A stretch of DNA of 64,000 nucleotides. Origin: a candidate division WOR-3 bacterium (lineage in GTDB: Bacteria; Hydrothermota; Tepidihabitantia; SM23-42). The stretch is taken from assembly GCA_020343595.1 (NCBI GenBank), contig CP070802.1:132989-196988 (forward strand), read 5' to 3'. A program made the position numbers and the translations under genes. Below, piece by piece: positions 10,572-60,282 of this stretch. The stretch's first letter is position 1; every line of letters starts with the position of its first letter. The notes beneath the pieces were generated by a model. The model made no database searches, was not told the DNA's origin, and was given only the letters and a program-made list of their open reading frames with translations.

Positions 10572-10597
10572 TGAAAATACTCCCGCACTTCCTGTCA
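10572..10597 (+). terminator. Hairpin terminator candidate after flavodoxin gene
   Basis: Perfect 9-bp stem cccgcactt/aagtgcggg with an 8-nt loop, but only a weak T tract follows. Confidence 0.4.
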
Positions 10598-10776
10598 AAA
10601 GTGCGGGACACTGAATTTTGCAACCAGATCGAAGATCTGGGCAAAATTCGCGAGGACAAGACGACTTTTTGGGATTTACCTGGATTTTGAGATTTGTGGT
10701 TTGGAATTTTGGCTGTTGGGGTTTATTTGGATTTTGTGATTTGTAGCTTGGAATTTGCTTTGTCATATGCCTCTGC

Positions 10777-10804
10777 TTGACGCTGCGTGTTTTCTGGATA
10801 TAAT
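10777..10804 (+). promoter_or_regulatory. Sigma70-like promoter TTGACG-N16-TATAAT upstream of tdh
   Basis: ttgacg at 10777-10782 and tataat at 10799-10804. A phased T-tract block at 10671-10766 precedes it. Confidence 0.5.
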
Positions 10805-10819: not shown

Positions 10820-11860
10820 ATGCCAACAATGAAAGCAGTAGCAAAGACAAAACCCGAACCTGGTGCGGAAATCATCGACATAGACATACCCACGCCCGGC
10901 CCTGATGACGTTCTGGCTAAGGTTCTCGCGACTTCGATCTGCGGGACAGATCTGCATATCTATGAATGGAATGAGTGGGCACAGGGTCGGATCAAGAATA
11001 TACCGCAGATCATGGGGCACGAACTCTGCGGTGAGATCGTTGAAACAGGTAAGAACGTCAAGAATTTGAAGAAAGGCGACATTATCTCGGCGGAAACCCA
11101 CATTGCCTGCGGACATTGTTACCTTTGCCACACAGGCAACGCCCATATTTGCGTCAACGGCAGCATATTCGGGGTCGACATCAATGGTGTATTTGCCGAA
11201 TACGCCGTAGTACCGGCACCGAACGCGTGGATACTCGACAGCCGGATCCAAAAGGACTTCGCGTCGGTGATGGAACCGCTCGGCAACGCAGTGCATACGG
11301 TTCTGGCCGGCGAGATCACCGGCAACACGGTCCTGGTCACCGGATGCGGTCCTATCGGGCTCATGAGCATCTCGGTGGCGCGCATCTGCGGTGCAACGAA
11401 AATAATCGCCACGGAAATAAATGACTTCCGTATCGGTCTGGCAGGAAAAGTCGGCGCCGATGTCGTGCTCAACCCGACGAAAGACAAAATCGTATCGAGG
11501 GTGCTGGAAGAAACCGCGGGACTCGGTGTTGACGTTGTCCTGGAAATGTCGGGTAATCCGACAGCCATGATCGATGCCTTCGGAGCTCTGAGGCCCGGCG
11601 GACGCTACTCGATCCTCGGCATACCCGACAAACCGATGGAAATAGACATAGGAAAACACATCGTCTTCAAATATGCTACGGTTCAAGGCATCAACGGCCG
11701 GTTGATGTTCTCAACATGGCACAAGACGGCAAGATTCCTGAGCTCCGGCCGTCTCGATCTCGAGCCCATCATAACTCATCGATTACGCCTCGACGAATAC
11801 GAAAAAGGAATGGATTTGATGAGGCAGGGTAACTGCGGCAAGATATTGTTGTATCCGTAG
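10820..11860 (+). CDS. tdh: L-threonine 3-dehydrogenase (zinc-dependent MDR family)
   Basis: End-to-end similarity to Tdh, including ICGTDLHIYEWNEWAQ, GHELCGEIVE, and a GxGxxG Rossmann fold. Confidence 0.85.
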   Translation: MPTMKAVAKTKPEPGAEIIDIDIPTPGPDDVLAKVLATSICGTDLHIYEWNEWAQGRIKNIPQIMGHELCGEIVETGKNVKNLKKGDIISAETHIACGHCYLCHTGNAHICVNGSIFGVDINGVFAEYAVVPAPNAWILDSRIQKDFASVMEPLGNAVHTVLAGEITGNTVLVTGCGPIGLMSISVARICGATKIIATEINDFRIGLAGKVGADVVLNPTKDKIVSRVLEETAGLGVDVVLEMSGNPTAMIDAFGALRPGGRYSILGIPDKPMEIDIGKHIVFKYATVQGINGRLMFSTWHKTARFLSSGRLDLEPIITHRLRLDEYEKGMDLMRQGNCGKILLYP

Positions 11861-11872
11861 TCTGGCGCCAGC

Positions 11873-12256
11873 ATGATTAAAGGGGTGGGCATTGACATTT
11901 CGAAGGTCGAACGATTCAATGCATTGAAAGACAAGAACGCATTCATCCATGAAGTACTAACGCCTGGCGAGATCACTGCTGTCGGGAGTGGACCGGACAC
12001 TACGGGTTCACTCGCTCTTCTATTTTCAATAAAAGAAGCGTTCATAAAAGCTTTGCGCTGCGGACTTCATCTTGGACATTTCTGGAGGCAGATTAACATC
12101 GATCCCCGCCTTGAGGTCGATGCCTCGGGGCGCATACGGGACCTTATCAACGAGAAATCTATCAGTAAATTGCATATCTCTGCTGCGCGAACGAAAAAGA
12201 ACGCGGTGGGTATTGTCGTAATGGAATCCGAGGATCAATTTCAGGAGGTGCTTTAA
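11873..12256 (+). CDS. acpS: Holo-[acyl-carrier-protein] synthase (4'-phosphopantetheinyl transferase, AcpS type)
   Basis: ~127 aa, with GIDISKVERF and IKEAFIKAL AcpS motifs. Confidence 0.7.
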   Translation: MIKGVGIDISKVERFNALKDKNAFIHEVLTPGEITAVGSGPDTTGSLALLFSIKEAFIKALRCGLHLGHFWRQINIDPRLEVDASGRIRDLINEKSISKLHISAARTKKNAVGIVVMESEDQFQEVL

Positions 12257-13956
12257 TGAGTAACATCGATTCCTACGAAGAACGGTATTCGAATTTTGAC
12301 TGGAAGATATCGGCCGAGGAACTTGAGTATGGCAAGAATGGGATGTACAATATCGGGTTCTACTGCAGCGACCGGATCGTGGAAAAAGGATTCGGTGACA
12401 GAACCGCCCTGATATGGCAGGGATTCAAGGGTGATGTAAAGGAATTCACCTACAATGACATCCGCATCTACAGCAACGTCGTCGCAAAATTCCTTATAGA
12501 TAAGGGCGTCAAGAGCGGAGACCGTGTCTGCATCTTCATGGATCGCATCCCCGAATTGTACATATCGTTCGTCGGCATTTTGAAAATGGGCGGAATAACC
12601 CAACCACTTTTTTCAGCCTTCGGTGAAGAAGCGCTTTTCACCCGGCTCGAGGATGCGAAGACCAAAGCGGTCATCACCACTAAGAAACATGCCGGCAAGA
12701 TCCGCAGGATCCGGGACCGGCTTCCCGCCCTTGAGAAGGTCATCATCGTCGATGTCGAAGAACAGGCTCTCAAGCCGGGCGAGATCTCCTTCAACATGGA
12801 GAAATCGACACCCGTTGAGAACTTTGAAATCGAAAAAGTGGGTCCGGAAGTACCTTCGGTCCTCCATTACACCTCGGGCACGACTGGAAAACCCAAAGGT
12901 GCGTTACACGTGCATTCTTCCATCATTGCCCAGTATATAACAGCAAAATGGGTCCTGGATATCACAAGCGGCGATATCTACTGGTGCACTGCAGACCCAG
13001 GTTGGGTGACCGGCACTAGTTACGGCATAATCGGCCCCTGGGCGTGCGGCGTTACCCAGACCGTGCTCGATTCAGGATTCAACACCGAGAAATGGTATCA
13101 ATTCATTGAAAAACACAAAATCACCGTTTGGTATACTGCACCAACCGCTATCCGCCTCCTTATGAAAGACGGGACGAGTGCCGTTCAAAAATACGACCTC
13201 AGCTGTCTCCGGCATCTAATCAGTGTTGGCGAACCTCTCAATGCCGAGGGCGTGATCTGGTCCGAACAGGCGTTCGGCAAGCCATTTCACGATTCCTACT
13301 GGCAGACCGAAACCGGATCGATCGTCATCACCAACTATCCGGGGATGAAGGTCAAGCCGGGGTCGATGGGCAAACCCTTTCCAGGAATAACAGCCACGGT
13401 TCTCGACCAGAAGACATTCGGACCCATCACCACTCCAGGCAAGGTAGGGCTCATCGCGCTCAAACCGGGCTGGCCATCGATGTTCCGTGCCTACTGGGAA
13501 AATAAGGAAATGTATGACAGTAAATTCAAGAACGGCTGGTACATCTGCGGTGACCGCTCGAGTATTGATAGTGAAGGTTACTTCTGGTTCGTCGGCCGCG
13601 ACGATGACGTAATAAACACGGGCGGGCACCTGGTCGGCCCCTTCGAGATCGAATCGGCACTGCTCGAACACGAAGCCGTCGCCGAATCAGCAGCGGTTGG
13701 TAAACCGGATGCCGTCAACATGGAAGTAGTTAAGGCCTTTGTCGCGCTCAAACCAGGATACGAGGCAAATGCCGATCTGGAGCTCAGCATAATGAATTTT
13801 ATTCGTAAGAAATTGTCCCCGCTGGCAATGCCACAGGAGATCGAATTCGTCGAATCTCTGCCAAAAACCCGAAGCGGCAAGATCATGCGTCGCTTGCTAC
13901 GGGCAAAGGAATGGGGACAGGAAATAGGTGACACATCAACATTAGAGAACGATTGA
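12256..13956 (+). CDS. AMP-forming acyl-CoA/acyl-ACP synthetase (acetyl-CoA synthetase family)
   Basis: AMP-binding motif YTSGTTGKPKG, plus the Acs-type YWQTETG motif and a C-terminal PKTRSGKIMRR. Confidence 0.8.
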   Translation: MSNIDSYEERYSNFDWKISAEELEYGKNGMYNIGFYCSDRIVEKGFGDRTALIWQGFKGDVKEFTYNDIRIYSNVVAKFLIDKGVKSGDRVCIFMDRIPELYISFVGILKMGGITQPLFSAFGEEALFTRLEDAKTKAVITTKKHAGKIRRIRDRLPALEKVIIVDVEEQALKPGEISFNMEKSTPVENFEIEKVGPEVPSVLHYTSGTTGKPKGALHVHSSIIAQYITAKWVLDITSGDIYWCTADPGWVTGTSYGIIGPWACGVTQTVLDSGFNTEKWYQFIEKHKITVWYTAPTAIRLLMKDGTSAVQKYDLSCLRHLISVGEPLNAEGVIWSEQAFGKPFHDSYWQTETGSIVITNYPGMKVKPGSMGKPFPGITATVLDQKTFGPITTPGKVGLIALKPGWPSMFRAYWENKEMYDSKFKNGWYICGDRSSIDSEGYFWFVGRDDDVINTGGHLVGPFEIESALLEHEAVAESAAVGKPDAVNMEVVKAFVALKPGYEANADLELSIMNFIRKKLSPLAMPQEIEFVESLPKTRSGKIMRRLLRAKEWGQEIGDTSTLEND

Positions 13957-13974
13957 AACAAATAAGGAGGTCGT

Positions 13975-14229
13975 ATGAACCAAGACATTAAGAATTTGAT
14001 AATAGACTACGTCAAGAAAGAATATCTGGAGGAAGATGCGGAACAAGAAGTCAATGAGACCACACCATTGATATCGAGTGGCATAGTTGATTCGTTCTCA
14101 ATGGTTTCATTGAAGACTTTTCTCGAGAAGAAATTCAACATCAAAATCCCGGATGAAAAAGCAACTCCTGAGGCATTCGATAGTGTTAACAACATAATCA
14201 ATCTGCTCAAGGAATTTAACGTCACATAG
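13975..14229 (+). CDS. Small carrier protein (acyl/D-alanyl carrier protein-like, phosphopantetheine attachment)
   Basis: 84 aa and acidic, with GIVDSFSMVSL resembling the DltC/ACP Ser attachment site (DS[LM]xxVxL). A strong GGAGGT RBS precedes it. Confidence 0.55.
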   Translation: MNQDIKNLIIDYVKKEYLEEDAEQEVNETTPLISSGIVDSFSMVSLKTFLEKKFNIKIPDEKATPEAFDSVNNIINLLKEFNVT

Positions 14230-14236
14230 GAGGTCC

Positions 14237-15487
14237 GTGATGGCCTACAGTAATAAGGCAAGAGGCTTCTTTGCGAACGAACTGACCGGTATCAGGGAAG
14301 CAGGAACCTTCAAGGAGGAAAGATTCATAGAATCACCCCAGGCCGCCAACATCAAAGTGGAATTCCCGGCCGGATCACCGCCAAAAGAAGTTCTCAACTT
14401 CTGCGCAAACAACTACCTTGGTTTATCGAGTCATCCAGAAGTTGTGACCGCAGCGCATGACGGTCTGAAGGAACGTGGTTACGGTATGTCGTCAGTGCGT
14501 TTCATCTGCGGTACCCAGGACATTCATCGGGAACTCGAAGAGAAGTTGACGAAATTCCTGGGCACCGAGGACACCATCCTCTTTCCTTCATGCATGGATG
14601 CCAATGCCGGCGTGTTCGATGTTGTCTTGGGCAAAGAAGATGCCATGATCGCGGACCGTCTCGTTCACGCCTCCATCGTCGATGGAATGAGACTGTGCAA
14701 GGCGCAATTATTCAATTACAAGCATTCAAATATGGAGCACCTCGAGGAGAAATTGAAGGAGAGCCAGGACTGCCGCTTCAGGCTCGTGATCACCGACGGC
14801 GTATTCTCCATGGACGGCGATGTCGCCAAACTAGATGAGATATGCAACCTTGCCGAAAAATATGATGCCATGGTGCTCGTCGATGACTCCCACGCCACCG
14901 GCTTCATGGGCAAGACCGGAAGAGGCACGCACGAACACTGCGGTGTGCTCGGACGCATTGATATCATAACGACAACCATGGGCAAGGCGCTGGGTGGCGC
15001 GTCGGGTGGATGCGTCAGTGGACGCAAAGAGATTGTCGACCTGTGCCGCCAGCGTGCCCGACCTTACTTGTTCTCGAACACGGTACCGCCGGTTATTGTC
15101 GCCGCTGCCAGTAAAGTACTCGACATTATCAGCAAGACGACCGACCGCCGCGACAAGCTCGAGGCGAATACCGTATTCTTTAGAGAAAAAATGACGGCCG
15201 CAGGATTTGACATTAAGGAAGGCGTGCATCCGATAGTACCGATCATGCTTTACAATGCAAAACTTGCACAGGACATGGCCCGTGATCTTTATAATGAAGG
15301 TATCTATGTAATAGGTTTTTCGTTCCCGGTCGTGCCCAAGGGCCAGGCCCGTATCAGAGTGCAAATCTCTGCCGGACATGAGCAAGCGCATATTGAACGT
15401 GCGATCGCAGCATTCACGAAGATAGGCGAGAAATACAAGATACTGGGCAAGAAGAAGAACGAGATAATCGATATGTATGGACTATGA
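14237..15487 (+). CDS. kbl: 2-amino-3-ketobutyrate CoA ligase (glycine C-acetyltransferase), PLP-dependent alpha-oxoamine synthase
   Basis: High similarity to E. coli Kbl along its whole length (NFCANNYLGL, ITDGVFSMDGD, TTTMGKALGG with the Lys). The likely true start is the ATG at 14240, 6 nt after GGAGGT. Confidence 0.85.
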   Translation: MMAYSNKARGFFANELTGIREAGTFKEERFIESPQAANIKVEFPAGSPPKEVLNFCANNYLGLSSHPEVVTAAHDGLKERGYGMSSVRFICGTQDIHRELEEKLTKFLGTEDTILFPSCMDANAGVFDVVLGKEDAMIADRLVHASIVDGMRLCKAQLFNYKHSNMEHLEEKLKESQDCRFRLVITDGVFSMDGDVAKLDEICNLAEKYDAMVLVDDSHATGFMGKTGRGTHEHCGVLGRIDIITTTMGKALGGASGGCVSGRKEIVDLCRQRARPYLFSNTVPPVIVAAASKVLDIISKTTDRRDKLEANTVFFREKMTAAGFDIKEGVHPIVPIMLYNAKLAQDMARDLYNEGIYVIGFSFPVVPKGQARIRVQISAGHEQAHIERAIAAFTKIGEKYKILGKKKNEIIDMYGL

Positions 15488-15612
15488 ACCATCGACGATG
15501 GAAAAATCAAATCTCAATATCCAAATACCAAACGATTTCAAGAACCAAATATCCAAATTGGGTATTGGGATTTTAGCATTATTTGTAATTTGATGCTTGG
15601 TGTTTGAGATTT

Positions 15613-16748
15613 ATGTCATCCGCGGAGAGGACATCTGACGTTATTGTGATCGGTGGTGGCATCATTGGCTGTGCTACTGGTTACTACCTGGCAAAGAAGG
15701 GGCTGAAAGTCAATCTCCTGGAAAGGGACTACCTAACCTCAGGTTCCACAGGCCGCTGTATCGGAGGAATCCGACAGCAATTCTCAACTCCCCTCAGTAT
15801 AAGAGTCGCGATGGAATCGATGAAGAAGTTCGCCGCGATGAATGATGAACTGGGTCAAGCCGTTGAGTTCCATCAAGGCGGATATCTATTTCTTGCGCAC
15901 AGCGAGGAAAAGAAACAAACATACCTGAAACTCATTGAAATCCAGCGGAAAATGGGGCTCGATGTCGAATTCATAGACGTTGGCGAGGTCGAAAAACTGG
16001 TGCCGGGCATCGACACGGAGGACCTCCTGGGCGGTGCCTACTGTGCGAGCGACGCGCAGGCGAACCCGTTTCTGATCGTTGACGGCTATGCACGGAAGAT
16101 AAAGGAAAAAGGACATGTCTTCACACATAAGGAAGTTACGCGGATAAATGTCGAGAACGGAAAGATCGTTTCGGTCAGCACGCGTGACAACGAAGATTTC
16201 CACGCGCCGATCGTGGTCAATGCGGCCGGACCCTTTGCCCGTGACGTCGCTCAGATGGTCAACATCGATATACCGGTCTATCCTGAACGGCATGAAGCAA
16301 TGATCACCGAACAGATGGAGCGGTTCTTCGACATGATGATCGTTGATTACCGACCGGACGGATGCTATTTCAACCAGAAGTGGCCACATGGAAGCATTAT
16401 TGGATGCTACACCCCGATACCGAATGTCCCCGGATATGATCTGGGCACGTCATTTGAATTTGCCAAGGAAATGGGTCGCCGGATGGGACGGCTAATACCA
16501 AGATTGAGTGATACAAAGATCATACGGCAATGGTCGGGAAGCTATGAAATGACGCCGGATGGTAATCCGATCCTTGATGAATCCGACGTTGCCGGTTTCT
16601 GGATCGTGGGCGGTATGTGTGGTCACGGATTCATGTTGGGGCCGGAGATCGCTTGGCTTGCTGCCGAATACATCGCCGAAGGAAAACCCCCATATGACAT
16701 CACGGAATTCGCCCTGCACCGTGATTTCGTCGGTAAAGAGGTGATGAA

Positions 16749-16752
<4 letters not shown>
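15613..16752 (+). CDS. FAD-dependent oxidoreductase (DAO family; glycine/D-amino-acid/sarcosine oxidase-like)
   Basis: VIVIGGGIIGCATGYYLAKKG dinucleotide-binding motif. The start was trimmed from the tool's TTG (15604) to the ATG at 15613. Confidence 0.7.
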
Positions 16753-17857
<1,105 letters not shown>

Positions 17858-17956: not shown

Positions 17957-17984
17957 TTGACACAAAATGAATTATATATATAAT
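17957..17984 (+). promoter_or_regulatory. Sigma70-like promoter TTGACA-N16-TATAAT for pilMNOPQ
   Basis: ttgaca at 17957-17962 and tataat at 17979-17984, sitting in an AT-rich intergenic region. Confidence 0.5.
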
Positions 17985-28526: not shown

Positions 28527-28827
28527 TTTCCTCCTTACTCATGTATTATAGACAAATCTTCCGCGAATTCAAGGTCCTATCTGTTACCCGTGTTTCAAAG
28601 ATCTACATGCTTGGATGTTAAGCAGGGCAGACAATGGTAACTCAGACTCCAGGCCAATACATGCATTGACATATCACCGATTTCGATTAATCTCAGCAAA
28701 TCGCGTATTAACAAGATTCCCGTTGAAATACCTCGAACGATGAGCGGTGTGAGAATGGATGTGAGAAGTTATTGATACAGTCCATTACCATATGCTAGAC
28801 AAATGTTCGATTGAAAAGGGGGAGATA

Positions 28828-31350
28828 ATGATCTACATATGTGTCGGAATGATCTTTCTTACCAGTATCGGAGGCAAGATACAGGGCAATGTGACCGATG
28901 CGGCTAGTGGTGAGCCAATACAAAACGCCAACGTCCTCGTTCTCGAGACAGATATTGGCTCAGCCACCGATGCAACTGGAGATTTCTTCATTCTTAATGT
29001 CGCGCCGGGCAGGTATGTCGTTGAAGTTTCATGCCTAGGCTACGGTACCAAACGCATCTCGAACGTAAGCGTACAACACGATGAAACGGCACGGCTGAGC
29101 GTTACCCTCGAGCCAACAGCGATCGAAATATCACCCGTCACTGTAACGAGTGAGCGCCCGGCAGTATCCAAGGAAATGGTCGGCACAACTTATCTCGTTC
29201 GGAAGGAAGATATCTCTGCGCTGCCGGTCGATTATACCGTCGACCTGGTGGCTTTTCAAGCCTCAGTCGCCCGCCGGGATACAGCACTGCACGTAAGGGG
29301 CGGCCGCGCCACCGAAGTTCAGTATATGATCGATAATGTTTCGATCATCGATCCACAAACCGGAGAGGTTGCGATCAATCTCACTAAGGGCGTAATCGAT
29401 GAGGTCATCTTCCTGCCCGGCGGCTTCAATGCCGAATACGGACGTGCCATGTCAGGAATCATCAACATGATAACATCGTACCCGGCCGATCACCTGAGCA
29501 CACGGATCAAGGGAAAAACCGAACGCATCATGTCGGATGAGCAGGATTTCGGCTACGAGAACGTACAGACGTCTCTCCATCTTCCTTTCAACCGCAGGTT
29601 GAAAGGCTATTTAGCCTTGGACATCATGCATACGGATGACTGGGATCCCCGCATGTCAATTCTTCCCCACAAAGAGCGCGACGACTATTCCGTCTATGGT
29701 AAGTGGTTATACGACGCATCTGCCAAATTCAAACTGGCATTGAGTGGCGCAATGTCACGCAGCCAGTTCGATCGGTACGAAACTCTGTGGAAATTCCATC
29801 TCGACCACTACCGTTCCGACCTCGAAAGAGGCAATCTCCAGACCCTGAATTTGACATACCTTCCCGATACCCGGAAATTCTTTCAACTGACACTCAGCCG
29901 CCTACATTCCCACAAGACGTATGGCGTACGTGAAGATTCAAATTACGGCATTTTCGAAGATTTCGTATTCCGCCCGTACAGCTCACTGGAGTGGCTGAGG
30001 CCGAGCAGCGATAATCCGTACGGCGCTTACGTATGGAGACCTTACAGCGCAGGTGATTATCCTGAATACGGAGATAAGACTTCGAACGTAATGAAGGCTA
30101 CGTTCAATACAGATCTGCAGATCCACCGACACCATCAGATGAAAGCAGGGTGTGAATATGTTTTGCAGGATTTCAGCAGCCTTACTTATTTCATTAGCGA
30201 CAGCACGAGTCAGCTCCTGGATGAGTACGATTATCAACCAACAGAATACTCGATCTATGTCCAGGACAACATCGACTTCAAGGGTGTCTACGCCAAACTG
30301 GGCTGCCGTTATGACTATTTCTCCAGTGACATAGAAGGTGTCGAACCGAAGCACTATCTTTCACCGCGCCTCGGAGTCTCATTCGAAGTAACCGAGAAGT
30401 TCATTTTCCGAGCGAACCTCGGCCAGTACGCACAGCCTCCCTTATATGATTATATGTACAGCTACTACAGCCTCCTGCCGCTTCCTTCGTACCTCTTTGG
30501 ATACGTTCCGATCATCGGTAATCCTGAACTGACACCAGAAAAGACAGTGAGCTACGAACTCGGTCTTCAGGGTGAAATCAGCGCCAATCTGAGCACTACG
30601 CTCAACGCGTTCTACAAGGATGTCACCGACCTCATCGGCACGCGTCAAGTGCGGCTTCTCCCCTTACACCACGAGTATTTTCAGTACGTGAACATTGAAT
30701 ATGCAAATATCAAAGGTATCGAGACGATTCTCGAAGTGAACCATGGTCCTTTTACTGGCAGGATTTCCTATACCCTCTCGTGGGCGAAAGGAACGAGTTC
30801 CTACGCTGCGGAATTTGGTGACACCATCTACGAAAGACCAGCCAGTGATTATTATCTTGATTTTGATCAGAGGCACCGCCTTTTTGTCCAAGGGACATTT
30901 CGCCTACCCATGATGTCACAATTGCATGTCTTTGGATACTTTGGCAACGGGTTCCCCTATACGCCTCCCGACCCTGAAGGGAAATACGAAGAGAGGAACT
31001 ACGCGAGGCTCCCGTTTCAAAAACAGATCGATTGTTTACTCTCCAAGACCTTCAAGATCGCCGGCGCGGCACTGAGTCTTGATCTTGAAATCATCAATCT
31101 CCTGAATCATCAGTACGAAATCACAACCCACCTCCCGCTGATAAGAGAACCCCATCTTTCCGACTTCGATGATTATGTTACGTTCCACAGTGACTACTAC
31201 AATCCAGCGGCCGATGCAAATCACGACGGTGTAATCGCGCCTTTCGAGGATTATTGGTCTTATGTGGCGATCAGGGAAGCCACCGATGATGTTGTCTACG
31301 CCACAAGTGCACCGAGGAGGATGAGGATAGGCGTTTCGTTTAGTTATTGA
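28828..31350 (+). CDS. TonB-dependent receptor-like outer membrane protein (CarboxypepD_reg-like N-domain + plug + beta-barrel), paralog 1
   Basis: Signal peptide, GKIQGNVTD...YGTKRI (CarbopepD_reg), a plug (VTVTSERP..., QYMIDNVSIIDP), and a C-terminal ...RIGVSFSY strand. A DANHDGVI calcium-binding-like loop sits near the C-terminus. The start was trimmed to the ATG at 28828 after AAGGGGGAG. Confidence 0.65.
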   Translation: MIYICVGMIFLTSIGGKIQGNVTDAASGEPIQNANVLVLETDIGSATDATGDFFILNVAPGRYVVEVSCLGYGTKRISNVSVQHDETARLSVTLEPTAIEISPVTVTSERPAVSKEMVGTTYLVRKEDISALPVDYTVDLVAFQASVARRDTALHVRGGRATEVQYMIDNVSIIDPQTGEVAINLTKGVIDEVIFLPGGFNAEYGRAMSGIINMITSYPADHLSTRIKGKTERIMSDEQDFGYENVQTSLHLPFNRRLKGYLALDIMHTDDWDPRMSILPHKERDDYSVYGKWLYDASAKFKLALSGAMSRSQFDRYETLWKFHLDHYRSDLERGNLQTLNLTYLPDTRKFFQLTLSRLHSHKTYGVREDSNYGIFEDFVFRPYSSLEWLRPSSDNPYGAYVWRPYSAGDYPEYGDKTSNVMKATFNTDLQIHRHHQMKAGCEYVLQDFSSLTYFISDSTSQLLDEYDYQPTEYSIYVQDNIDFKGVYAKLGCRYDYFSSDIEGVEPKHYLSPRLGVSFEVTEKFIFRANLGQYAQPPLYDYMYSYYSLLPLPSYLFGYVPIIGNPELTPEKTVSYELGLQGEISANLSTTLNAFYKDVTDLIGTRQVRLLPLHHEYFQYVNIEYANIKGIETILEVNHGPFTGRISYTLSWAKGTSSYAAEFGDTIYERPASDYYLDFDQRHRLFVQGTFRLPMMSQLHVFGYFGNGFPYTPPDPEGKYEERNYARLPFQKQIDCLLSKTFKIAGAALSLDLEIINLLNHQYEITTHLPLIREPHLSDFDDYVTFHSDYYNPAADANHDGVIAPFEDYWSYVAIREATDDVVYATSAPRRMRIGVSFSY

Positions 31351-31412: not shown

Positions 31413-33938
31413 ATGATTCATGTCATGATGGCGGTTATCCTGTTTGGCAGTGTTACCGGTAAGATCCAGGGCAGGATTGTTGACGGCAAAACGGACGAGC
31501 CCATTGCATATGCCAACGTCACCGTGCTCGACACCGAACTCGGCGCGGCGACCGATGACGCCGGCTATTTCTTCATCCTCAACGTACCCCCGGGTGAATA
31601 TACCGTAGAAGTATCCTTTATCGGTTACCAGACAAAAAATATCGCGAATGTGATCGTCGAGTATGATAAGACCGTCCGCCTCGAGGTCAGCCTGATGCCT
31701 TCGGCAATCGAGCTTTCACCGGTTACCGTGACCAGTGAACGGCCGGCAGTGTCCAAAGACATGGTTGGTACCACCTATCTCATTCGCAAGACCGAGCTTC
31801 CCTATTTGCCGGTTGATTATACGATCGAGCTGGTGGCGTTCCAGGCTGCAGTTGCCCGTACTGACACGGCGCTTCATGTGCGCGGCGGCCGCGCTACCGA
31901 AGTCCAGTATATGATCGACAATGTTCCGATCATCGATCCCCAGACCGGCGATGCGGCAATAACCATCTCCAAGGGTGTGGTTGACGAGGTCATATTCCTG
32001 CCCGGTGGTTTCGATGCCGAATACGGCCGCGCCATGTCCGGTATTATCAATATGATAACGGCCTATCCGGCTGGCGATTTGAAGATGAAAGGTTACGGCA
32101 AGACCGAGAAGATCATGCCCGAGTATTATGATTTTGGTTACCAGAACGTCCAATCCTCAATACATTTACCAGTGACCAGGAAGTTCAAAGGATTTTTCTC
32201 CTTCGACGCGATGGTAACCGATGACTGGGACCCACGCCTGTATCTGATCTCACATAAGCAGCGACAGGATTATTCAATCTATGGCAAGTGGCTATATGCA
32301 CCGTCAGGAAAGATCAAATTCGGAATCAGCGGTGCGAAGTCGAGAAGTCAGTTCGACCGTTACGAAACACTCTGGAAATTCCGGCTTAATCACTACCGCT
32401 CAGACTTGATGAACGGCGATCTCCAGGCTTTTAACATAAACTTCTTGCCAGATTCGCGCCGGTTTTTCGACTTGACCCTGAGCCGTCTGTATACCGCAAC
32501 GACATACGGTGTGCGCAATCCAGGACCATACGATTTGCTTGATGACTATACTTTCCGTGATTATCAAACCTATGAGTACCCATGGATCGGGATCATGAAC
32601 CCGTTCGGCGTATACCTACGCAAGCCTTACAGTGAAGGTGATTATCCAAGGTATCAGGATAAATCCTCAGAAATATACCGGGCAACACTGCGAGCAAACA
32701 TGCAGATCCACAAGAACCACGAATTGAGAACCGGAGGTGAGTATGTCTATCACGATATCTATAACCTGACCTACTTCACGAGCGATTCGATCGACCCGGT
32801 TTTGGATGAGTATCAATATAACCCGACAGAATACTCTATCTATGTCCAGGATAATCTCGATTATGAAGGTATATACCTTAAACTGGGCTGTCGTTACGAT
32901 TATTTTTCAAATGATATCGTAGGTGCGGAGGCGAACACGGCGATTTCGCCACGGCTCGGTGTTTCCTTTCTCGTCACCGATAAATTCCTCTTCCGCGCCA
33001 ACATAGGCCGGTATGCCCAGCCTCCATTATTCAACCAGATGTACGATTACTATAACATCCTGCCGCTCCCGCTCTATGTTCTGTCCCGACCCGATGAATG
33101 GCCGGTCGTCGGCAATCCGAATCTCCAGCTCGAGCAGACAACCAGTTATGAGATCGGTCTGCAAGGCGAGATACGTGAAAACTTGAGCGCCACGGTAAAT
33201 GCTTTCTATAAAGATGTTTCAAATCTTATCGGCACGCGTCATGTTGAAGCGCTGCCGTACGATTATGACCAATATGTTAATATAGACTATGCAAATATTA
33301 AGGGGATCGAAACGATCCTGGAATTCGTGAATTCAATATTCTCGGGCAAGATATCTTACACACTTTCCTGGACCCAGGGTACGAGTTCATACGCAGGGGA
33401 GTACCTTGATCCAGATATCCCGAGGCCCACGACCGAATACTACCTCGATTTTGACCAGCGGAACCGGATCTTTATCCAGGGTCTGATCCACCTTCCCTTT
33501 GAGTCTCAATTCTACGTGTTTGGCTATTTTGGCGATGGTTTTCCCTACGTGCCGCCCGGCCCTGAAGGTAAGTATGAAGAGCGCGGGGTCTTGCGGTTAC
33601 CATCCCAGAAGCAGATCGATTGTGTGCTTGCCAAATCTATTAACATAGCCAACCTCACTTTCAGCCTGAGCTTTGAGGTGCTGAACCTCCTCGACGAAAG
33701 ATACCTGGTTGCACCCCATGCACCGCTGATAGAAGAGCAACAGCGCTGGGATTTCCATGATTACTACACGTTTAAACACCGTTACTACAGTCCGGCAGCC
33801 GATGCGAACCATGACGGTCTACTGACACCTTCTGAGGCATATGATGCTTACACTGCAGCTTATCATGCTACAGACGATTGGGTAAATGCATATTCACCGC
33901 CCCGCCGGGCTCGGATCGCCCTGCAGGTCAGTTTTTAA
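31413..33938 (+). CDS. TonB-dependent receptor-like outer membrane protein, paralog 2 (tandem duplicate)
   Basis: Collinear with the upstream paralog throughout, with roughly 60% identity by eye. It has the same DANHDGLL loop and a C-terminal ...RIALQVSF strand. Confidence 0.65.
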   Translation: MIHVMMAVILFGSVTGKIQGRIVDGKTDEPIAYANVTVLDTELGAATDDAGYFFILNVPPGEYTVEVSFIGYQTKNIANVIVEYDKTVRLEVSLMPSAIELSPVTVTSERPAVSKDMVGTTYLIRKTELPYLPVDYTIELVAFQAAVARTDTALHVRGGRATEVQYMIDNVPIIDPQTGDAAITISKGVVDEVIFLPGGFDAEYGRAMSGIINMITAYPAGDLKMKGYGKTEKIMPEYYDFGYQNVQSSIHLPVTRKFKGFFSFDAMVTDDWDPRLYLISHKQRQDYSIYGKWLYAPSGKIKFGISGAKSRSQFDRYETLWKFRLNHYRSDLMNGDLQAFNINFLPDSRRFFDLTLSRLYTATTYGVRNPGPYDLLDDYTFRDYQTYEYPWIGIMNPFGVYLRKPYSEGDYPRYQDKSSEIYRATLRANMQIHKNHELRTGGEYVYHDIYNLTYFTSDSIDPVLDEYQYNPTEYSIYVQDNLDYEGIYLKLGCRYDYFSNDIVGAEANTAISPRLGVSFLVTDKFLFRANIGRYAQPPLFNQMYDYYNILPLPLYVLSRPDEWPVVGNPNLQLEQTTSYEIGLQGEIRENLSATVNAFYKDVSNLIGTRHVEALPYDYDQYVNIDYANIKGIETILEFVNSIFSGKISYTLSWTQGTSSYAGEYLDPDIPRPTTEYYLDFDQRNRIFIQGLIHLPFESQFYVFGYFGDGFPYVPPGPEGKYEERGVLRLPSQKQIDCVLAKSINIANLTFSLSFEVLNLLDERYLVAPHAPLIEEQQRWDFHDYYTFKHRYYSPAADANHDGLLTPSEAYDAYTAAYHATDDWVNAYSPPRRARIALQVSF

Positions 33939-34497: not shown

Positions 34498-34920
34498 ATG
34501 TTCAATCGCACATTCAATTTTCTATCCATCCTTACTCTAATCTCGGTCTTTGTGCTGCTGGCAAGAATTTCCTGTACCGATCCTGACGAATACAATCCTC
34601 AAATACAAAAAATCCCTCCTCCGGATCCTCCCGAAGTCATAAACCCACTGCTTGATACTGTCATTTGTGGTGGTCCGGTCTTCTTCGACTGGACAGTACC
34701 AGCAGGCTCCGAGATATTCCAGATTCAGACTGACACGACGCCTTCATTCAATACCGCGGAAATGTTCCAAACCTTCGCGTCAGCAGCGATCCTGGGCCTG
34801 GAATACTACGGAACGAGGAGAATCACGTATTACGCAAGAATACGCGCCGGTAGTTCAGGCTGGTCAGATTACACGGTTTGGTCCGATATCAGACGATTCT
34901 ACCTCTGGCAAGAATCCTGA
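34498..34920 (+). CDS. Small lipoprotein paralog B (lipobox LARISC)
   Basis: CTDPDEYNPQ...PPPDPP...YYARIRAGSSGWSDYTVWSDIRRFYL, collinear with paralog A. Confidence 0.55.
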   Translation: MFNRTFNFLSILTLISVFVLLARISCTDPDEYNPQIQKIPPPDPPEVINPLLDTVICGGPVFFDWTVPAGSEIFQIQTDTTPSFNTAEMFQTFASAAILGLEYYGTRRITYYARIRAGSSGWSDYTVWSDIRRFYLWQES

Positions 34921-34921
34921 C

Positions 34922-35791
34922 ATGAAAAACTTCTTTAAAAGCATTGAGATCGGCCAGCCCGTTTTCCTCAGAAACCTTTTGATCCATCCGATCTCCGGTC
35001 CCTCAGGGAACGGCATCGAGATCTCATCGCTTGAAGATATTCTGAGTGATTCCAGGGGTGAATTCAGCGAACTGGAGCCGCCCGACATCAACCGGATCTC
35101 ATTTTTCAACAACGCGGATTCCGCAGTACTCATGCTGGACGGTGAAGAAGTCATCGGCTCTCTGCAGAACCGTATCCTCGCCGGCTCAACATTGGTCATG
35201 CCCCGGGCAAGGACCGAAATGCCGGTCATCTGCGCCGAAGAGGGCAGGTGGGAAAGCATCGGCTCGTTTGGAACAGGATACTGCTCATACCCCACAATCC
35301 GCGCCATTCTCTCGCGGCGCGGCAGGGGGTCGAACGGGTTGCAGAAGAAGATCTGGCATGAGATCGAACGTAAACTGACAGTCACAAAAACTCTCAGCAC
35401 AACCTCTTCGATGCACGATATATACAATAATCTTGATGATGAAGTCACGCGCTATCTCGAGGATTTTCAGGGTCTGGGTCCTGACACCATCGGCTTTATC
35501 GGCATCGCCGGAAAGAAGATTTTGGGCTGCGATATGTTCCTGAGCAATGCCGTCTACCGTAGATTTGAGAATAAACTCATACGCAGTTATGCGCTCGATG
35601 CCATCGAATACCGCAGGACATCGGGCGACAGGATCGATGCCCATGCCTTCCTTGAGGGTATAATCAGCTCGGTAAACAAGAAAAGATTGCCTCGAGACAC
35701 TCATCATTTTACCATGAAAGACAGCAGAGCAACCGGACAGGGATCTTTTGCCGATGGCCGCGTAGTACATCTTTCAGTCTTCCCAAAATAG
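34922..35791 (+). CDS. Hypothetical protein (289 aa), translationally coupled to downstream kinase-helicase fusion
   Basis: The tool ORF 34652-35791 overlaps the lipoprotein gene in another frame. The start was trimmed to the ATG at 34922, 1 nt after the lipoprotein stop. No recognisable domain. It ends 3 nt before the GTG start of the kinase-helicase gene. Confidence 0.5.
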   Translation: MKNFFKSIEIGQPVFLRNLLIHPISGPSGNGIEISSLEDILSDSRGEFSELEPPDINRISFFNNADSAVLMLDGEEVIGSLQNRILAGSTLVMPRARTEMPVICAEEGRWESIGSFGTGYCSYPTIRAILSRRGRGSNGLQKKIWHEIERKLTVTKTLSTTSSMHDIYNNLDDEVTRYLEDFQGLGPDTIGFIGIAGKKILGCDMFLSNAVYRRFENKLIRSYALDAIEYRRTSGDRIDAHAFLEGIISSVNKKRLPRDTHHFTMKDSRATGQGSFADGRVVHLSVFPK

Positions 35792-35794
35792 TCT

Positions 35795-38317
35795 GTGCTG
35801 CTCAAGAAATTAGGTAAATACGAGATCATAGAATGGCTCGGGGGAGGCAGATTCGGCGATGTCTTCCTTGCCCGTGATACGATCATCGATAAGAACTTCG
35901 CGCTGAAGATCTCCCGTATGCGGCGTGAAGAAATTGCCATGCTGAAAGACGAAGCAATTCTGCTTTCGTCCCTGAATCATCCGAACATTGTACGTTTCTA
36001 TAACATTGACTTCATCGACAATAAATTCGTGCTGGTGATGGAATACGTCGAAGGAAATAATCTGCGTGATATCATTACCGAAGGCGGTATCGATATCAGG
36101 ACAACGATAACGATACTTAACCAGATCATCGACGCCCTCTCCTATGCACACGGTGCCAAAGTGCTTCACAGGGATCTCAAACCCGAAAACATCCTGGCAG
36201 CGAAGAAAAAGAAGGACATATCAATAAAGATCACCGATTTTGGCCTCGCAAAGTTCATCCGCGCTGATTCGATATCGGCGTCGAGCGCCGGCACCCCGAT
36301 CTACATGGCACCGGAATCCTGGGCGGGAAGCTACAGCGAGAAATCTGACATATGGAGTCTGTGTGTAATCCTCTATGAGATGCTTACTGGAACCCCACCT
36401 TTTCTTGATGACAACCTGGACGGGCTCAAGAGAAAGATCGAGAAGTCCAAATTCACCTCACCGGCGATTCTGAGACACAACATTCCGGAACAGCTCGAGA
36501 AGATGATCATGTCAGGACTTACACCCGACCCGTTGACTCGGCCCGGCATAGCAGAGATCATGGATTACGTCAGCCAAATCGGCAAAGGCATCCGGGGTGA
36601 GAGAGTACGTGTAATGAGAGAGAAACCCGGCGCTATAAAACTCACGCCCGTGCAGAAAGAAATCATCGACTCCCTGTCCGGCGCGGTGCTCGTGCTGGGC
36701 CAGGCGGGCTGCGGAAAAACCACAACCCTTACCGAGGCCGTGAATACACTGATTGGCAAAGGAGTCCCGATCGCCCGCATACTGGTATGTACTTTCACCA
36801 ATAAGGCAGCAAATGACATACATGAGAGATTGACGAAGACGAATCGGTTCGACGTCCATGATCTGTGGCTGGGCACCCTGCACACGCTGGGATTTCGCAT
36901 CCTGCGCCGCGATGCCGAACGATTGGACATCGACCCCGATTTTACGATAGAAGATTCAAAGAGCATCGTCCGGGCAATCGGGATTGATGTTGGAAAGTTC
37001 CGTATCAACGTAGTGTTGAGATTCATTGAGATGCTGAAATCAAAGGGCGTAACGGCTAAGGATTTCGAACCCAGGAATAAGTGGGAAGAAACGTGTTCGG
37101 ATGTCTACAACAAATACGAAACCTACACGAGGGAGAGCAACATACTCGACTACGATGATTTGATCCTTCTTTCGATTAGATTGCTTGAAGACAACGTTGA
37201 TATCAGACAGGAGTACCAGAACATGTTCGACCACATCTTCGTCGATGAGCTTCAAGATATCAACCCTGCGCAGTACGATTTGATCAGGCTTATATATAAG
37301 GAAAGAATTTTCTTCACGGGCGATGGCGATCAGGCGATCTACGGTTGGCGTGGTGCGCAAAAGGAACTAATCCACCGCGTTCCGAAGGATTATCCGGCCG
37401 TCAAAATGTTCCAGCTCAATCAGAGCTTCCGTCTCGCTCAGGGTATCATCGATATCGCAAACAGCCTCATGCACCGGGAGCCGACCGTTATCCCAACAGG
37501 GCAAAAGAGTGATGTATTCGTATACGCCGCAAAATCCGAAGAAGACGAGGTTAGGTTCCTGACTAAGGAGATAGCCAAACTCAGGAAAGAAGATTTCAGC
37601 TACCGGGATATCGTTGTCCTGTGTCGCATGAACCAGCTCGCACGCGTCTATCAAGAAGCAATGGCAAAAGCGCGCATACCACATGCATTGATCAGCGGTG
37701 CATCCCTATATGAACGCAGCGAAGTAAAACCCATCATCGATTACCTTGAGACGCTGAAAGAATGTCAGCTGACGGAAAAACCACCTCCTAATTTCGCCGC
37801 TCGAATGAACAACCTACTGAGGATACCAAAGCGGAAAGCCCGACGTGCGCAAGGAGTCTATGAACACCATCTGGCTAATTTGATGATGCTCGAACCGAAG
37901 AAGATCATAGATGACATAATTGAATTGATCGGTTTGCACGGTGTCGAAACAGAAGAACTCCGGAACCTGGCAAGGGAGCTGACTTCCAATAATCTCGTTA
38001 ATTTCCTGAATCAGGTGCGACTCGCACGAGAACTTGACCTGGCCGGCTGGAGCAAAGACCTGGTTAAGGTTATGACCGTTCATAGTGCAAAGGGATTGGA
38101 ATTTCCGGTCGTATTTGTTGTCGATCTGGTAGAAAATATCTTCCCTCTTACCAGAAAGATATCTTCTCAGAAGGAAATCGATGAGGAACGTAGATTGTGT
38201 TATGTCGCATTGACGCGGGCTCAGAAGAAACTATACTTGTTATACCCGAAGTGGCGTCACGGCCGGTATCAGAAACCATCCCGGTTTCTGGTCGATATGT
38301 TCAAGACCGACCTCTAA
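35795..38317 (+). CDS. Fusion protein: N-terminal Hanks-type Ser/Thr protein kinase domain + C-terminal UvrD/PcrA/Rep-type SF1 DNA helicase (840 aa)
   Basis: Kinase motifs: GGGRFGDV (Gly loop), FALKI (VAIK), HRDLKPENI, DFG, MAPE. Helicase motifs: I GQAGCGKTTT, Ia TFTNKAANDI, II FVDELQD, III GDGDQAIYGWRGA, VI VHSAKGLEFPVVFVV and VALTRAQKKLYL. Confidence 0.8.
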   Translation: MLLKKLGKYEIIEWLGGGRFGDVFLARDTIIDKNFALKISRMRREEIAMLKDEAILLSSLNHPNIVRFYNIDFIDNKFVLVMEYVEGNNLRDIITEGGIDIRTTITILNQIIDALSYAHGAKVLHRDLKPENILAAKKKKDISIKITDFGLAKFIRADSISASSAGTPIYMAPESWAGSYSEKSDIWSLCVILYEMLTGTPPFLDDNLDGLKRKIEKSKFTSPAILRHNIPEQLEKMIMSGLTPDPLTRPGIAEIMDYVSQIGKGIRGERVRVMREKPGAIKLTPVQKEIIDSLSGAVLVLGQAGCGKTTTLTEAVNTLIGKGVPIARILVCTFTNKAANDIHERLTKTNRFDVHDLWLGTLHTLGFRILRRDAERLDIDPDFTIEDSKSIVRAIGIDVGKFRINVVLRFIEMLKSKGVTAKDFEPRNKWEETCSDVYNKYETYTRESNILDYDDLILLSIRLLEDNVDIRQEYQNMFDHIFVDELQDINPAQYDLIRLIYKERIFFTGDGDQAIYGWRGAQKELIHRVPKDYPAVKMFQLNQSFRLAQGIIDIANSLMHREPTVIPTGQKSDVFVYAAKSEEDEVRFLTKEIAKLRKEDFSYRDIVVLCRMNQLARVYQEAMAKARIPHALISGASLYERSEVKPIIDYLETLKECQLTEKPPPNFAARMNNLLRIPKRKARRAQGVYEHHLANLMMLEPKKIIDDIIELIGLHGVETEELRNLARELTSNNLVNFLNQVRLARELDLAGWSKDLVKVMTVHSAKGLEFPVVFVVDLVENIFPLTRKISSQKEIDEERRLCYVALTRAQKKLYLLYPKWRHGRYQKPSRFLVDMFKTDL

Positions 38318-54793: not shown

Positions 54794-54796
54794 TTC

Positions 54797-54950
54797 GTTC
54801 CCTGCAGTGCCCGTGATCGGTATGAAGTCTTGAGCCAACACCCATCTTAAGGGAGCCAAGTTCGATCAGGGATTTTACCCGAATTCGACTGGCGCCCACC
54901 TTAACCTTGGGTTCAAAGACTTTTTACCACACGGCACTTGCGGGGAGCTT
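54797..54950 (+). ncRNA. ssrS: Candidate 6S RNA (ssrS) between zapA and rny
   Basis: ~150-nt non-coding gap with long-range complementarity between its ends (gaagtctt/aagacttt; gtgcccgtg/cacggcac) closing a central unpaired region. The zapA-ssrS synteny is known from E. coli. Boundaries are approximate. Confidence 0.3.

Positions 54951-60208: not shown

Positions 60209-60282
<74 letters not shown>

Follow-up and report, generated by a model that had tools for sequence, protein, structure and literature searches.

The DNA analysed here is a stretch of 64,000 nucleotides (nt) from a candidate division WOR-3 bacterium (contig CP070802.1, positions 132,989 to 196,988 of the forward strand), called the window below. 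It carries a predicted five-gene operon at its positions 10,820 to 15,487. Three of the genes encode an AMP-forming ligase of the acetyl-coenzyme A (acetyl-CoA) synthetase (Acs) type, a small phosphopantetheine carrier protein and an alpha-oxoamine synthase (AOS) of the Kbl type, named AOS1. They form a conserved core. Genes for a threonine dehydrogenase (Tdh)-like enzyme, an AcpS-type 4'-phosphopantetheinyl transferase (PPTase), a canonical Kbl and a DAO-family flavoenzyme are lineage-specific additions to it. On balance, the module is probably a carrier-protein-dependent version of the Tdh/Kbl node, with the condensing direction taken as the likelier one. The window was studied by comparative sequence analysis, and all positions are given in its own coordinates. 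The features are listed below.

10777..10804, + strand: sigma-70-like promoter (TTGACG, 16 nt spacer, TATAAT; 11 of 12 consensus positions), 16 nt 5' of the tdh ATG
10820..11860, + strand: Zn-dependent L-threonine 3-dehydrogenase-type enzyme, 346 amino acids (TIGR00692, NF003808)
11873..12256, + strand: AcpS-type 4'-phosphopantetheinyl transferase, 127 amino acids (PF01648, TIGR00556)
12256..13956, + strand: Acs-type AMP-forming ligase, 566 amino acids (NF003313; SYWQTETG motif)
13975..14229, + strand: phosphopantetheine carrier, 84 amino acids (weak PF00550; D39-S40; Ser40 codon at 14092-14094)
14237..15487, + strand: Kbl-type alpha-oxoamine synthase AOS1, 415-416 amino acids (TIGR01822; ATG at 14240 is the likelier start)
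about 15613-16752, + strand: DAO-family FAD amine oxidoreductase (PF01266), downstream of AOS1

A preliminary description of this DNA had identified the five genes from tdh to AOS1 as Tdh, an AcpS-type PPTase, an Acs-type ligase with the motif YWQTETG, an 84-residue carrier and a Kbl-type AOS. Profile matches confirm all five at the coordinates given there, and all are co-directional on the + strand. The same gene calls are present on independent assemblies of this WOR-3 organism. The genes are closely packed, with gaps of 12, -1, 18 and 7 nt from tdh through acpS, ligase and carrier to AOS1. Stop codon of acpS and start codon of the ligase share bases in TAATG, and AGGAGG ribosome-binding sites stand ahead of the ligase, the carrier and AOS1. 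The promoter at 10777-10804 is the sole strong promoter-like site before pilM, the next of similar quality being located at 17957, ahead of pilM itself. A hairpin at 10581-10608 closes the upstream flavodoxin gene before the tdh promoter. Internal promoter-like sites (9 found, 9.3 expected after shuffling) and internal terminator-like sites (8 found, 8.0 expected) are no more frequent than by chance. These features predict one operon and one transcription unit for the five genes. An Rfam scan of the whole window returned no riboswitch or leader at the operon, the only hits being a distant 6S RNA and one distant tRNA.

The conservation of the module was studied by aligning carrier homologs and scanning one genome per GTDB species (species representatives). 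More than 348 loci encode a relative of the carrier. The best 80 of them were retrieved with flanks of 10 kb, and the percentages given here describe that subset. The loci were ascertained with the carrier peptide patterns GIVDSFSM and I[DEN]YVK[KR]EY, so that the invariance of GIVDSFSM is partly built into their selection. All of them come from metagenome-assembled genomes, and some taxon labels are unreliable. Neighbour counts rest on tblastn because the calling of open reading frames (ORFs) is unreliable in GC-rich loci, and the denominators are the loci with enough flanking sequence.

Directly 3' of the carrier, a Kbl-like gene (67-94% identical to AOS1 of the window) was found in 71 of 72 loci. 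The ligase (64-90% identical to that of the window) lies directly 5' of the carrier in 59 of 66 loci and nearby in three more. This adjacency spans at least 15 lineages. The hosts belong to WOR-3, Ignavibacteria/Kapaibacteria, Bacteroidota, Chlorobi, Zixibacteria, Aminicenantes and other Acidobacteriota, as well as to KSB1, Calditrichaeota, Eisenbacteria, Riflebacteria, Chrysiogenales, Bipolaricaulota and a few doubtfully labelled bins. Protein searches for a cultured host gave metagenome-derived entries only. Since the same order recurs in dozens of genomes of many phyla, it is far beyond chance. A Tdh-like gene is located upstream in 19 of 57 loci and an acpS gene in 17 of 57. A second, canonical Kbl paralog (50-65% identical) is encoded in 30 of 72 loci, often adjoining AOS1.

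No other conserved partner emerged when the 998 ORFs of the 80 loci were clustered and the recurrent or co-directional neighbours annotated. The candidates considered, namely LptF/G, Tgt, phosphatidylserine (PS) decarboxylase, RNase Y, RsmB, Mrp, RmuC, GH3, FtsH, a histidine kinase, SDR and DUF1028 proteins, are unrelated housekeeping neighbours. Among the neighbours in the 80 loci, no tailoring, export or regulatory genes recur, and no pdx or cob genes are linked to the module. The adjacency counts, together with neighbours that are otherwise unrelated, define the conserved unit as ligase, carrier and synthase. The preliminary description had seen the middle three genes as inserted into a canonical tdh-kbl operon. 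This picture has to be reversed, the core being ligase-carrier-AOS and the Tdh-like and acpS genes being lineage-specific. It had suggested a survey of synteny in related genomes, and the gene order does recur, in related and in distant ones. Its view that the middle three genes are not independent housekeeping genes was borne out, given internal signals at chance level, a carrier other than AcpP and the adjacency across lineages.

Two variants of the gene order were observed. In some Ignavibacteria (L036, 7354-7893, and L032), a 179-residue zinc-ribbon/DUF2007 protein (family f66) is encoded between ligase and carrier. On a short contig (L086, 1839-2231), whose carrier is 58% identical to that of the window, a glyoxalase/VOC-family gene directly follows AOS1 on its 3' side. 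This gene may have to do with aminoacetone or methylglyoxal formed as side products.

Carrier, ligase, synthase and accessory enzymes

The carrier contains the motif GIVDSFSM with D39-S40. In an AlphaFold2 model (mean pLDDT 84.6), helices span residues 2-17, 40-54 and 71-80, and Ser40 stands at the start of helix II. The carrier family is acidic (median isoelectric point 4.4). It is large, with more than 7,400 clusters when sequences are grouped at 90% identity, and yet compact, as only 61 representatives at 50% identity among 1.84 billion proteins reach E<=1e-10. The closest solved relatives of the window carrier are a 77-residue carrier chain of 6CXT, PltL, PigG, DltC and an aminoacyl carrier protein. 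All NCBIfam carrier models, the AcpP type included, score under their cut-offs, with 28.2 bits for the AcpP model TIGR00517 (cut-off 70.45) and 31.6 bits for the DltC model NF003464 (cut-off 68). E. coli AcpP matches the carrier with E=0.07. The window operon is without a membrane-bound O-acyltransferase (MBOAT) gene and without DltA. By these comparisons, the carrier is classed as a dedicated protein of the DltC or type II peptidyl carrier protein (PCP) kind, not as the AcpP of fatty acid synthesis. The best NCBIfam carrier match was the acyl carrier protein (ACP) of ornithine-lipid synthesis, OlsH/OlsI, at 56 bits against a cut-off of 130. This lead was dropped, as OlsH requires neither ACP nor CoA. 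Fusions of the carrier to a partner gave no information, longer homologs being ACP-thioesterase didomains or tandem ACPs of unrelated systems. The PPTase of the window passes PF01648 (54.7 bits, cut-off 25) and TIGR00556 (57.4 bits, cut-off 45.35) and stays under the cut-off of the acpS equivalog TIGR00516 (46.1 against 59.8).

The ligase of the window matches the acetate-CoA ligase model of the AcsA type, NF003313, with 769.6 bits (cut-off 729). Its best solved relative is AcsA 9G79 (572 residues, 555 bits). In the numbering of Salmonella enterica Acs, taken from an alignment to 2P2F, the ligase keeps V310, T311, V386 and W414, which make up the acetate pocket of that enzyme, and the catalytic K609. 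V310, T311, W414 and K609 are invariant in all 58 carrier-linked ligases compared, and position 386 is valine in 56 and isoleucine in two. The pocket of the carrier-linked ligases is thus predicted to be acetate-sized, with acetate as the probable substrate. One locus (L058, 4439-6139) encodes a second ligase in tandem, 5' of the carrier-linked one and 55% identical to it, with the changes W414L and V386I. This tandem paralog demonstrates that position 414 is variable, and its substitutions suggest that it acts on a longer-chain acid.

The acceptor of the ligase is less apparent from its residues. The CoA-contact positions of Acs (R191, R194, R526, R584 and F163-G165) do not discriminate between the use of carrier and of CoA. 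Basic residues are kept at the R584 and R526 equivalents of the window ligase, and AcsA of Bacillus subtilis, too, departs from S. enterica Acs at the variable CoA-contact positions. It is the synteny that argues for the carrier, not CoA, as the acceptor.

AOS1 exceeds the cut-offs of two Kbl models by a wide margin, with 625.1 bits for the glycine C-acetyltransferase model TIGR01822 (cut-off 493) and 605.2 bits for NF005394 (cut-off 460). The AOS1 of L010 reaches 610.9 bits with TIGR01822. Both the carrier-adjacent AOS1 and the second Kbl copy are above the Kbl equivalog cut-offs, and models of serine palmitoyltransferase (SPT) give AOS1 only 238-328 bits against cut-offs of 500-670. The window AOS1 is 57% identical to E. 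coli Kbl (1FC4). Seven substrate-cavity residues of Cupriavidus necator Kbl are known (PMC9814548). The catalytic and cavity residues of Kbl, the latter following that list (PMC9814548), correspond to N50, V79, H136, S185, D210, H213, T241, K244, L272, F273 and R368 in E. coli numbering, and all 11 are invariant in 62 of 62 AOS1 sequences. Because the active site of Kbl is unchanged, AOS1 is expected to carry out the same chemistry. The preliminary description had also linked the genes to sphingoid-base or aminolipid synthesis. An acetate-sized ligase pocket and a Kbl cavity in the synthase speak against this link.

Despite its Kbl-like active site, AOS1 is distinct from the canonical enzyme. 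In a neighbour-joining (NJ) tree, all 100 of 100 bootstraps separate it from the Kbl enzymes of E. coli and Coxiella and from 26 canonical paralogs that reside in the same loci. Identity averages 75% among AOS1 sequences, 64% among the canonical ones and 56% from one set to the other. Seven substitutions are specific to the clade (N135V/I, Y108F, S109P, G116A, L264C, L298R and D334N). N135V/I adjoins the His that stacks on pyridoxal 5'-phosphate (PLP), and the clade-specific changes fall outside the listed substrate-cavity residues. A gained Arg (L298R) and a lost Asp (D334N) would suit docking of an acidic carrier. Glycine and acetyl chemistry would be unchanged in AOS1, with altered recognition of the thiol partner, and the near-universal adjacency (71/72) points to a carrier thioester rather than CoA in that role. 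Moreover, AOS1 is not simply the Kbl of the organism, since a canonical Kbl often adjoins it (30/72). The preliminary description had held the synthase to be a bona fide canonical Kbl and left its grouping to phylogeny. The tree sets it apart from the canonical enzymes, which co-occur with it in those 30 loci.

These findings bear on a rival explanation, namely that the genes are ordinary ones (a general acpS, an Acs, an accessory ACP and a normal Tdh and Kbl), with ligase and Kbl using CoA and the carrier being unrelated. Tdh, ligase and AOS do exceed the NCBIfam equivalog cut-offs of the canonical enzymes, and the sequences hold no proof of lost CoA use. This explanation is nonetheless very improbable. 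It is hard to reconcile with a ligase-carrier-AOS order kept in 59 of 66 and 71 of 72 loci while the other neighbours differ, with a separate AOS1 clade coexisting with canonical Kbl, with a carrier unlike AcpP and with tight translational coupling.

The Tdh-like enzymes linked to the module are divergent. Tdh of the window passes TIGR00692 marginally (465.1 bits, cut-off 458.35) and NF003808 more clearly (453.9 bits, cut-off 380). It is 71-91% identical to the Tdh at the same position in other WOR-3 loci and 44% identical to the canonical Tdh of an Ignavibacteria-type locus carrying the module (L036; 583 bits). Three divergent types occur upstream of the module, with 346 residues in WOR-3, about 350 in Zixibacteria and 408-428 in Ignavibacteria/Bacteroidota, and they are 35-48% identical to the canonical Tdh of L036. 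The Zixibacteria enzymes (357-386 bits) are both under TIGR00692, and only that of L023 reaches NF003808 (381.0 against 380). The Ignavibacteria homologs (247-290 bits) are under both cut-offs. In several Ignavibacteria, a canonical Tdh adjoins the canonical Kbl paralog beside the module. The repeated recruitment of three Tdh-type enzymes points to 2-amino-3-ketobutyrate or threonine as the metabolite.

The Ignavibacteria/Bacteroidota type has an insertion of about 60-80 residues in its catalytic domain, between the His-Glu motif of the catalytic zinc and the cysteines of the structural zinc. Genes with this insertion were seen in L010 (4467-5753) and L014 (4621-5847), and also in L005, L007, L011, L012, L015, L018 and L021. 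Tdh profiles fit these proteins well only from about residue 134-153 onward.

The flavoenzyme gene is found 3' of AOS1 only in WOR-3-like loci. Its product matches the DAO family (PF01266, 234 bits), with SoxB-like and ThiO-like matches under their cut-offs. The best match in the PDB is 1Y56_B (220 bits), of the dye-linked proline dehydrogenase/sarcosine oxidase beta type. The preliminary description was right that an FAD enzyme follows AOS1. Its label of a glycine-oxidase-like enzyme fits less well, as the protein is closer to the 1Y56_B type than to ThiO. The enzyme is a WOR-3-specific appendage, and its membership in the pathway is uncertain.

Direction and product of the proposed pathway

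A scheme can be proposed from these properties. AcpS would convert the 84-residue apo-carrier into the holo-carrier. The ligase would adenylate acetate and pass the acetyl group to the phosphopantetheine thiol of the carrier, not to CoA. AOS1 would condense acetyl-S-carrier and glycine to 2-amino-3-ketobutyrate, with release of holo-carrier, and the Tdh-type dehydrogenase would interconvert 2-amino-3-ketobutyrate and threonine with NAD(H). In the favoured net direction, threonine would be formed from acetate, glycine, ATP and NADH. A private pool of acetyl-carrier, kept loaded by ATP-to-AMP hydrolysis, would drive the unfavourable condensation whatever the acetyl-CoA/CoA ratio. The core chemistry is more certain than the direction, and the path could run either way.

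Two comparisons favour the loading and condensing direction. The first is with a homologous ligase-carrier pair that stands beside an MBOAT and can only load forward. In L085, the gene for a DltB-like MBOAT is preceded by that for a carrier (46% identical to the window carrier) and, before it, by that for a ligase which is 59% identical to the window ligase and shares its acetate pocket. The second is with the AasR/AcpR/SPT system, which runs from acid to carrier to synthase (PMC9386255). Of the two uses that the preliminary description had considered, the feeding of a carrier-bound acyl donor to the Kbl-type enzyme is the one favoured by synteny. The recycling of acetate to acetyl-CoA may still occur, and it would leave the carrier unexplained.

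Relatives of the pair were also seen in other settings. The arrangement of Acs-like ligase, carrier and MBOAT was noted at L084 (714-2463) and L085 (562-4086), and a carrier and an MBOAT only in L088 (252-1524). The ligase-carrier-MBOAT genes lie in a polysaccharide gene cluster, and ATP-grasp, GT2 and PGA_cap genes follow them. The system looks like a Dlt-like one that would deliver acetyl rather than D-alanine to a polymer. More distant carrier relatives adjoin other ANL ligases and MBOATs.

Several points weigh against this interpretation. All of its support is comparative, and the mechanism is deduced from sequence. The ligase and AOS1 pass curated equivalog cut-offs of CoA enzymes, and the ligase keeps basic residues of the R584 type, so that use of CoA is conceivable. 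The co-directional canonical Kbl directly 3' of the module (30/72) would short-circuit a biosynthetic flux unless separately regulated. Ligase and carrier genes are not direct neighbours in several loci of Aminicenantes. The amine-oxidising flavoenzyme after AOS1 in WOR-3 reads more naturally as part of catabolism. Finally, the reaction of AMP-forming Acs is reversible.

The main rival is accordingly a catabolic, ATP-conserving pathway on a private acetyl pool. Tdh would oxidise threonine, AOS1 and holo-carrier would cleave the product to glycine and acetyl-carrier, and the ligase would run in reverse to yield acetate and ATP. Some features of the hosts and their loci suit such a pathway. The host lineages are mostly known from metagenome bins only, and the flavoenzyme that ends the WOR-3 operon could process glycine further. 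Canonical Kbl and Tdh are encoded beside the module in many Ignavibacteria, where parallel cleavage fits better than synthesis next to degradation. The Acs reaction is near equilibrium, and reverse operation of an AMP-forming Acs has reportedly been found in Syntrophus aciditrophicus. We know, however, of no ANL ligase that unloads a carrier protein physiologically. A private carrier would also be unneeded, as acetyl-CoA can feed the usual ATP-forming routes, and the homologous ligase-carrier pair beside the DltB-like MBOAT must load. The AasR/AcpR/SPT precedent likewise runs from acid through carrier to condensation (PMC9386255). The catabolic pathway is hence considered unlikely, and synthesis from acetate and glycine is kept as the preferred interpretation.

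The module could also make a small specialised product instead of threonine. Decarboxylation of 2-amino-3-ketobutyrate might lead to aminoacetone, 1-amino-2-propanol or a pyrazine-type compound, or a hydroxy-amino acid might be formed. With other short acids, 3-hydroxynorvaline would arise from propionate and the vitamin B6 precursor 4-hydroxythreonine from glycolate. The module-linked Tdh enzymes are divergent, most being under the Tdh equivalog cut-off and the Ignavibacteria type bearing an insertion, and in AOS1 the residue beside the PLP-stacking His is invariably changed (N135V/I). In L086, the gene 3' of AOS1 is of the glyoxalase family, and C. necator Kbl is able to bind 3-hydroxynorvaline (PMC9814548). 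On the other hand, the acetate pocket of the ligase and the cavity of AOS1 are the same as in Acs and Kbl, and no pdx or cob genes are linked. The high conservation across phyla (64-90% for the ligase, 67-94% for AOS1) and the lack of tailoring, export or regulatory genes fit core metabolism better. A specialised product is for these reasons thought to be distinctly unlikely.

A broader claim can be attached to the preferred interpretation of an acetate-loaded carrier. The module might represent a widespread, unrecognised central route in uncultured, probably anaerobic hosts, where a private acetyl-carrier would serve to build threonine, or at least 2-amino-3-ketobutyrate, out of glycine and free acetate, the ATP-charged carrier insulating the condensation thermodynamically from the acetyl-CoA pool. 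This joint claim is put forward tentatively, as a possibility that is somewhat doubtful as a whole.

Other features of the window

Just 5' of the tdh promoter, within 10669-10756, lies a 47-nt tandem direct repeat (41 nt, 85% identity). Motifs of this repeat, of the TTGAGATTT and TTTGGAWTTT types, recur, partly inverted, in the spacer between AOS1 and the flavoenzyme gene (15506-15612). TTTGGAWTTT occurs four times in the window, with 0.56 occurrences expected. The repeat was considered as a regulator site of the operon and rejected, as the TTGAGATTT-type motif is not conserved upstream in other WOR-3 loci.

Downstream of the flavoenzyme gene, tgt (queuine tRNA-ribosyltransferase) is not one continuous ORF. 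It is spread over 16749-17300 (183 residues) and 17177-17857 (226 residues), which overlap and are read in different frames of the + strand. The same gene is split in three other WOR-3 loci (L028, L079 and L081), and an intact Tgt of 376 residues is encoded in another (L033). A frameshift, either conserved or programmed, could explain this, or the gene may truly be divided in two.

Further along, at 35795-38317 (+), the window encodes an 840-residue protein in which an N-terminal Ser/Thr kinase is fused to a UvrD/PcrA-type helicase. The kinase part matches PknB, the MADS6 kinase and the BREX PglW kinase. On the 5' side of this gene, three large ORFs (28792-31350, 31413-33938 and 34652-35791) have no NCBIfam match at 1e-25. 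The region may be a defence island. The 6S RNA (76 bits) is located at 54796-54950 (+), immediately 5' of the RNase Y gene (54986-56542), and the tRNA gene at 60209-60282 (+).

Significance and relation to known systems

In this module, acetate, glycine and threonine appear to be connected in a manner not described before. A literature search found no publication on a Kbl enzyme working with a carrier protein or on a ligase that loads acetate onto a carrier, and none on acetyl-ACP together with 2-amino-3-ketobutyrate or on threonine metabolism of such a kind in Ignavibacteria or WOR-3. Automated annotation labels the genes as an ordinary threonine dehydrogenase, acetyl-CoA synthetase, acyl carrier protein and glycine C-acetyltransferase, and the module is thereby hidden. 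Metabolic reconstructions of WOR-3, Ignavibacteria, Zixibacteria, Aminicenantes and further groups consequently read threonine degradation and acetate assimilation and overlook the carrier. If the carrier does replace CoA, protein-bound thioesters would serve a two-carbon step of core amino acid metabolism, beyond their use in lipids and natural products. AOS1 and canonical Kbl, with the same active site and, in that case, different thiol partners, would be a good pair in which to study the choice between CoA and carrier. The proposal is testable with four recombinant proteins.

Several known systems share parts of the module. AcsA (B. subtilis, 9G79; NF003313) resembles the ligase, with roughly 50% identity (47% in a global alignment), the same acetate pocket and the same catalytic lysine. 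In contrast to AcsA, the carrier-linked ligases, which closely resemble one another (64-90% identity across phyla) and are encoded with a carrier, are presumed to use protein-bound pantetheine instead of CoA as acceptor. The Dlt system (DltA, DltC and DltB) is related through DltC, which is among the nearest relatives of the window carrier, and through L085, where a homologous Acs-like ligase and carrier lie directly 5' of a DltB-like MBOAT. However, the window module is without an MBOAT, its ligase does not activate D-alanine, and its acyl acceptor would be a soluble PLP enzyme.

With the canonical Tdh-Kbl pathway (E. coli kbl-tdh; 1FC4, 7BXP), the module shares the active-site residues and would share the two chemical steps. 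The canonical pathway differs in using free CoA, without carrier, ligase or PPTase, whereas AOS1 belongs to a separate clade with seven specific substitutions, often encoded beside canonical Kbl.

The closest known system appears to be AasR/AcpR/SPT, which serves sphingolipid synthesis in Caulobacter and other Rhodobacteria. Experiments on it showed that the ligase acylates its own carrier but does not acylate CoA, and that SPT prefers the acyl-carrier (PMC9386255). As in the module, genes for an ANL ligase, a small dedicated carrier other than AcpP and an alpha-oxoamine synthase lie together. The analogy to such trios drawn in the preliminary description is apt (PMC9386255). The differences lie in the ligase, which is here of the Acs type with an acetate-sized pocket, in AOS1, which has the active site of Kbl and not of SPT, and in the carrier, which is of the DltC or type II PCP kind. 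No ceramide genes are linked here, and the product would be a four-carbon amino acid intermediate instead of a long-chain base. By analogy, the module may be regarded as a small-substrate counterpart of such carrier-dependent oxoamine-synthase systems, in which acetate and glycine would be the compounds joined.

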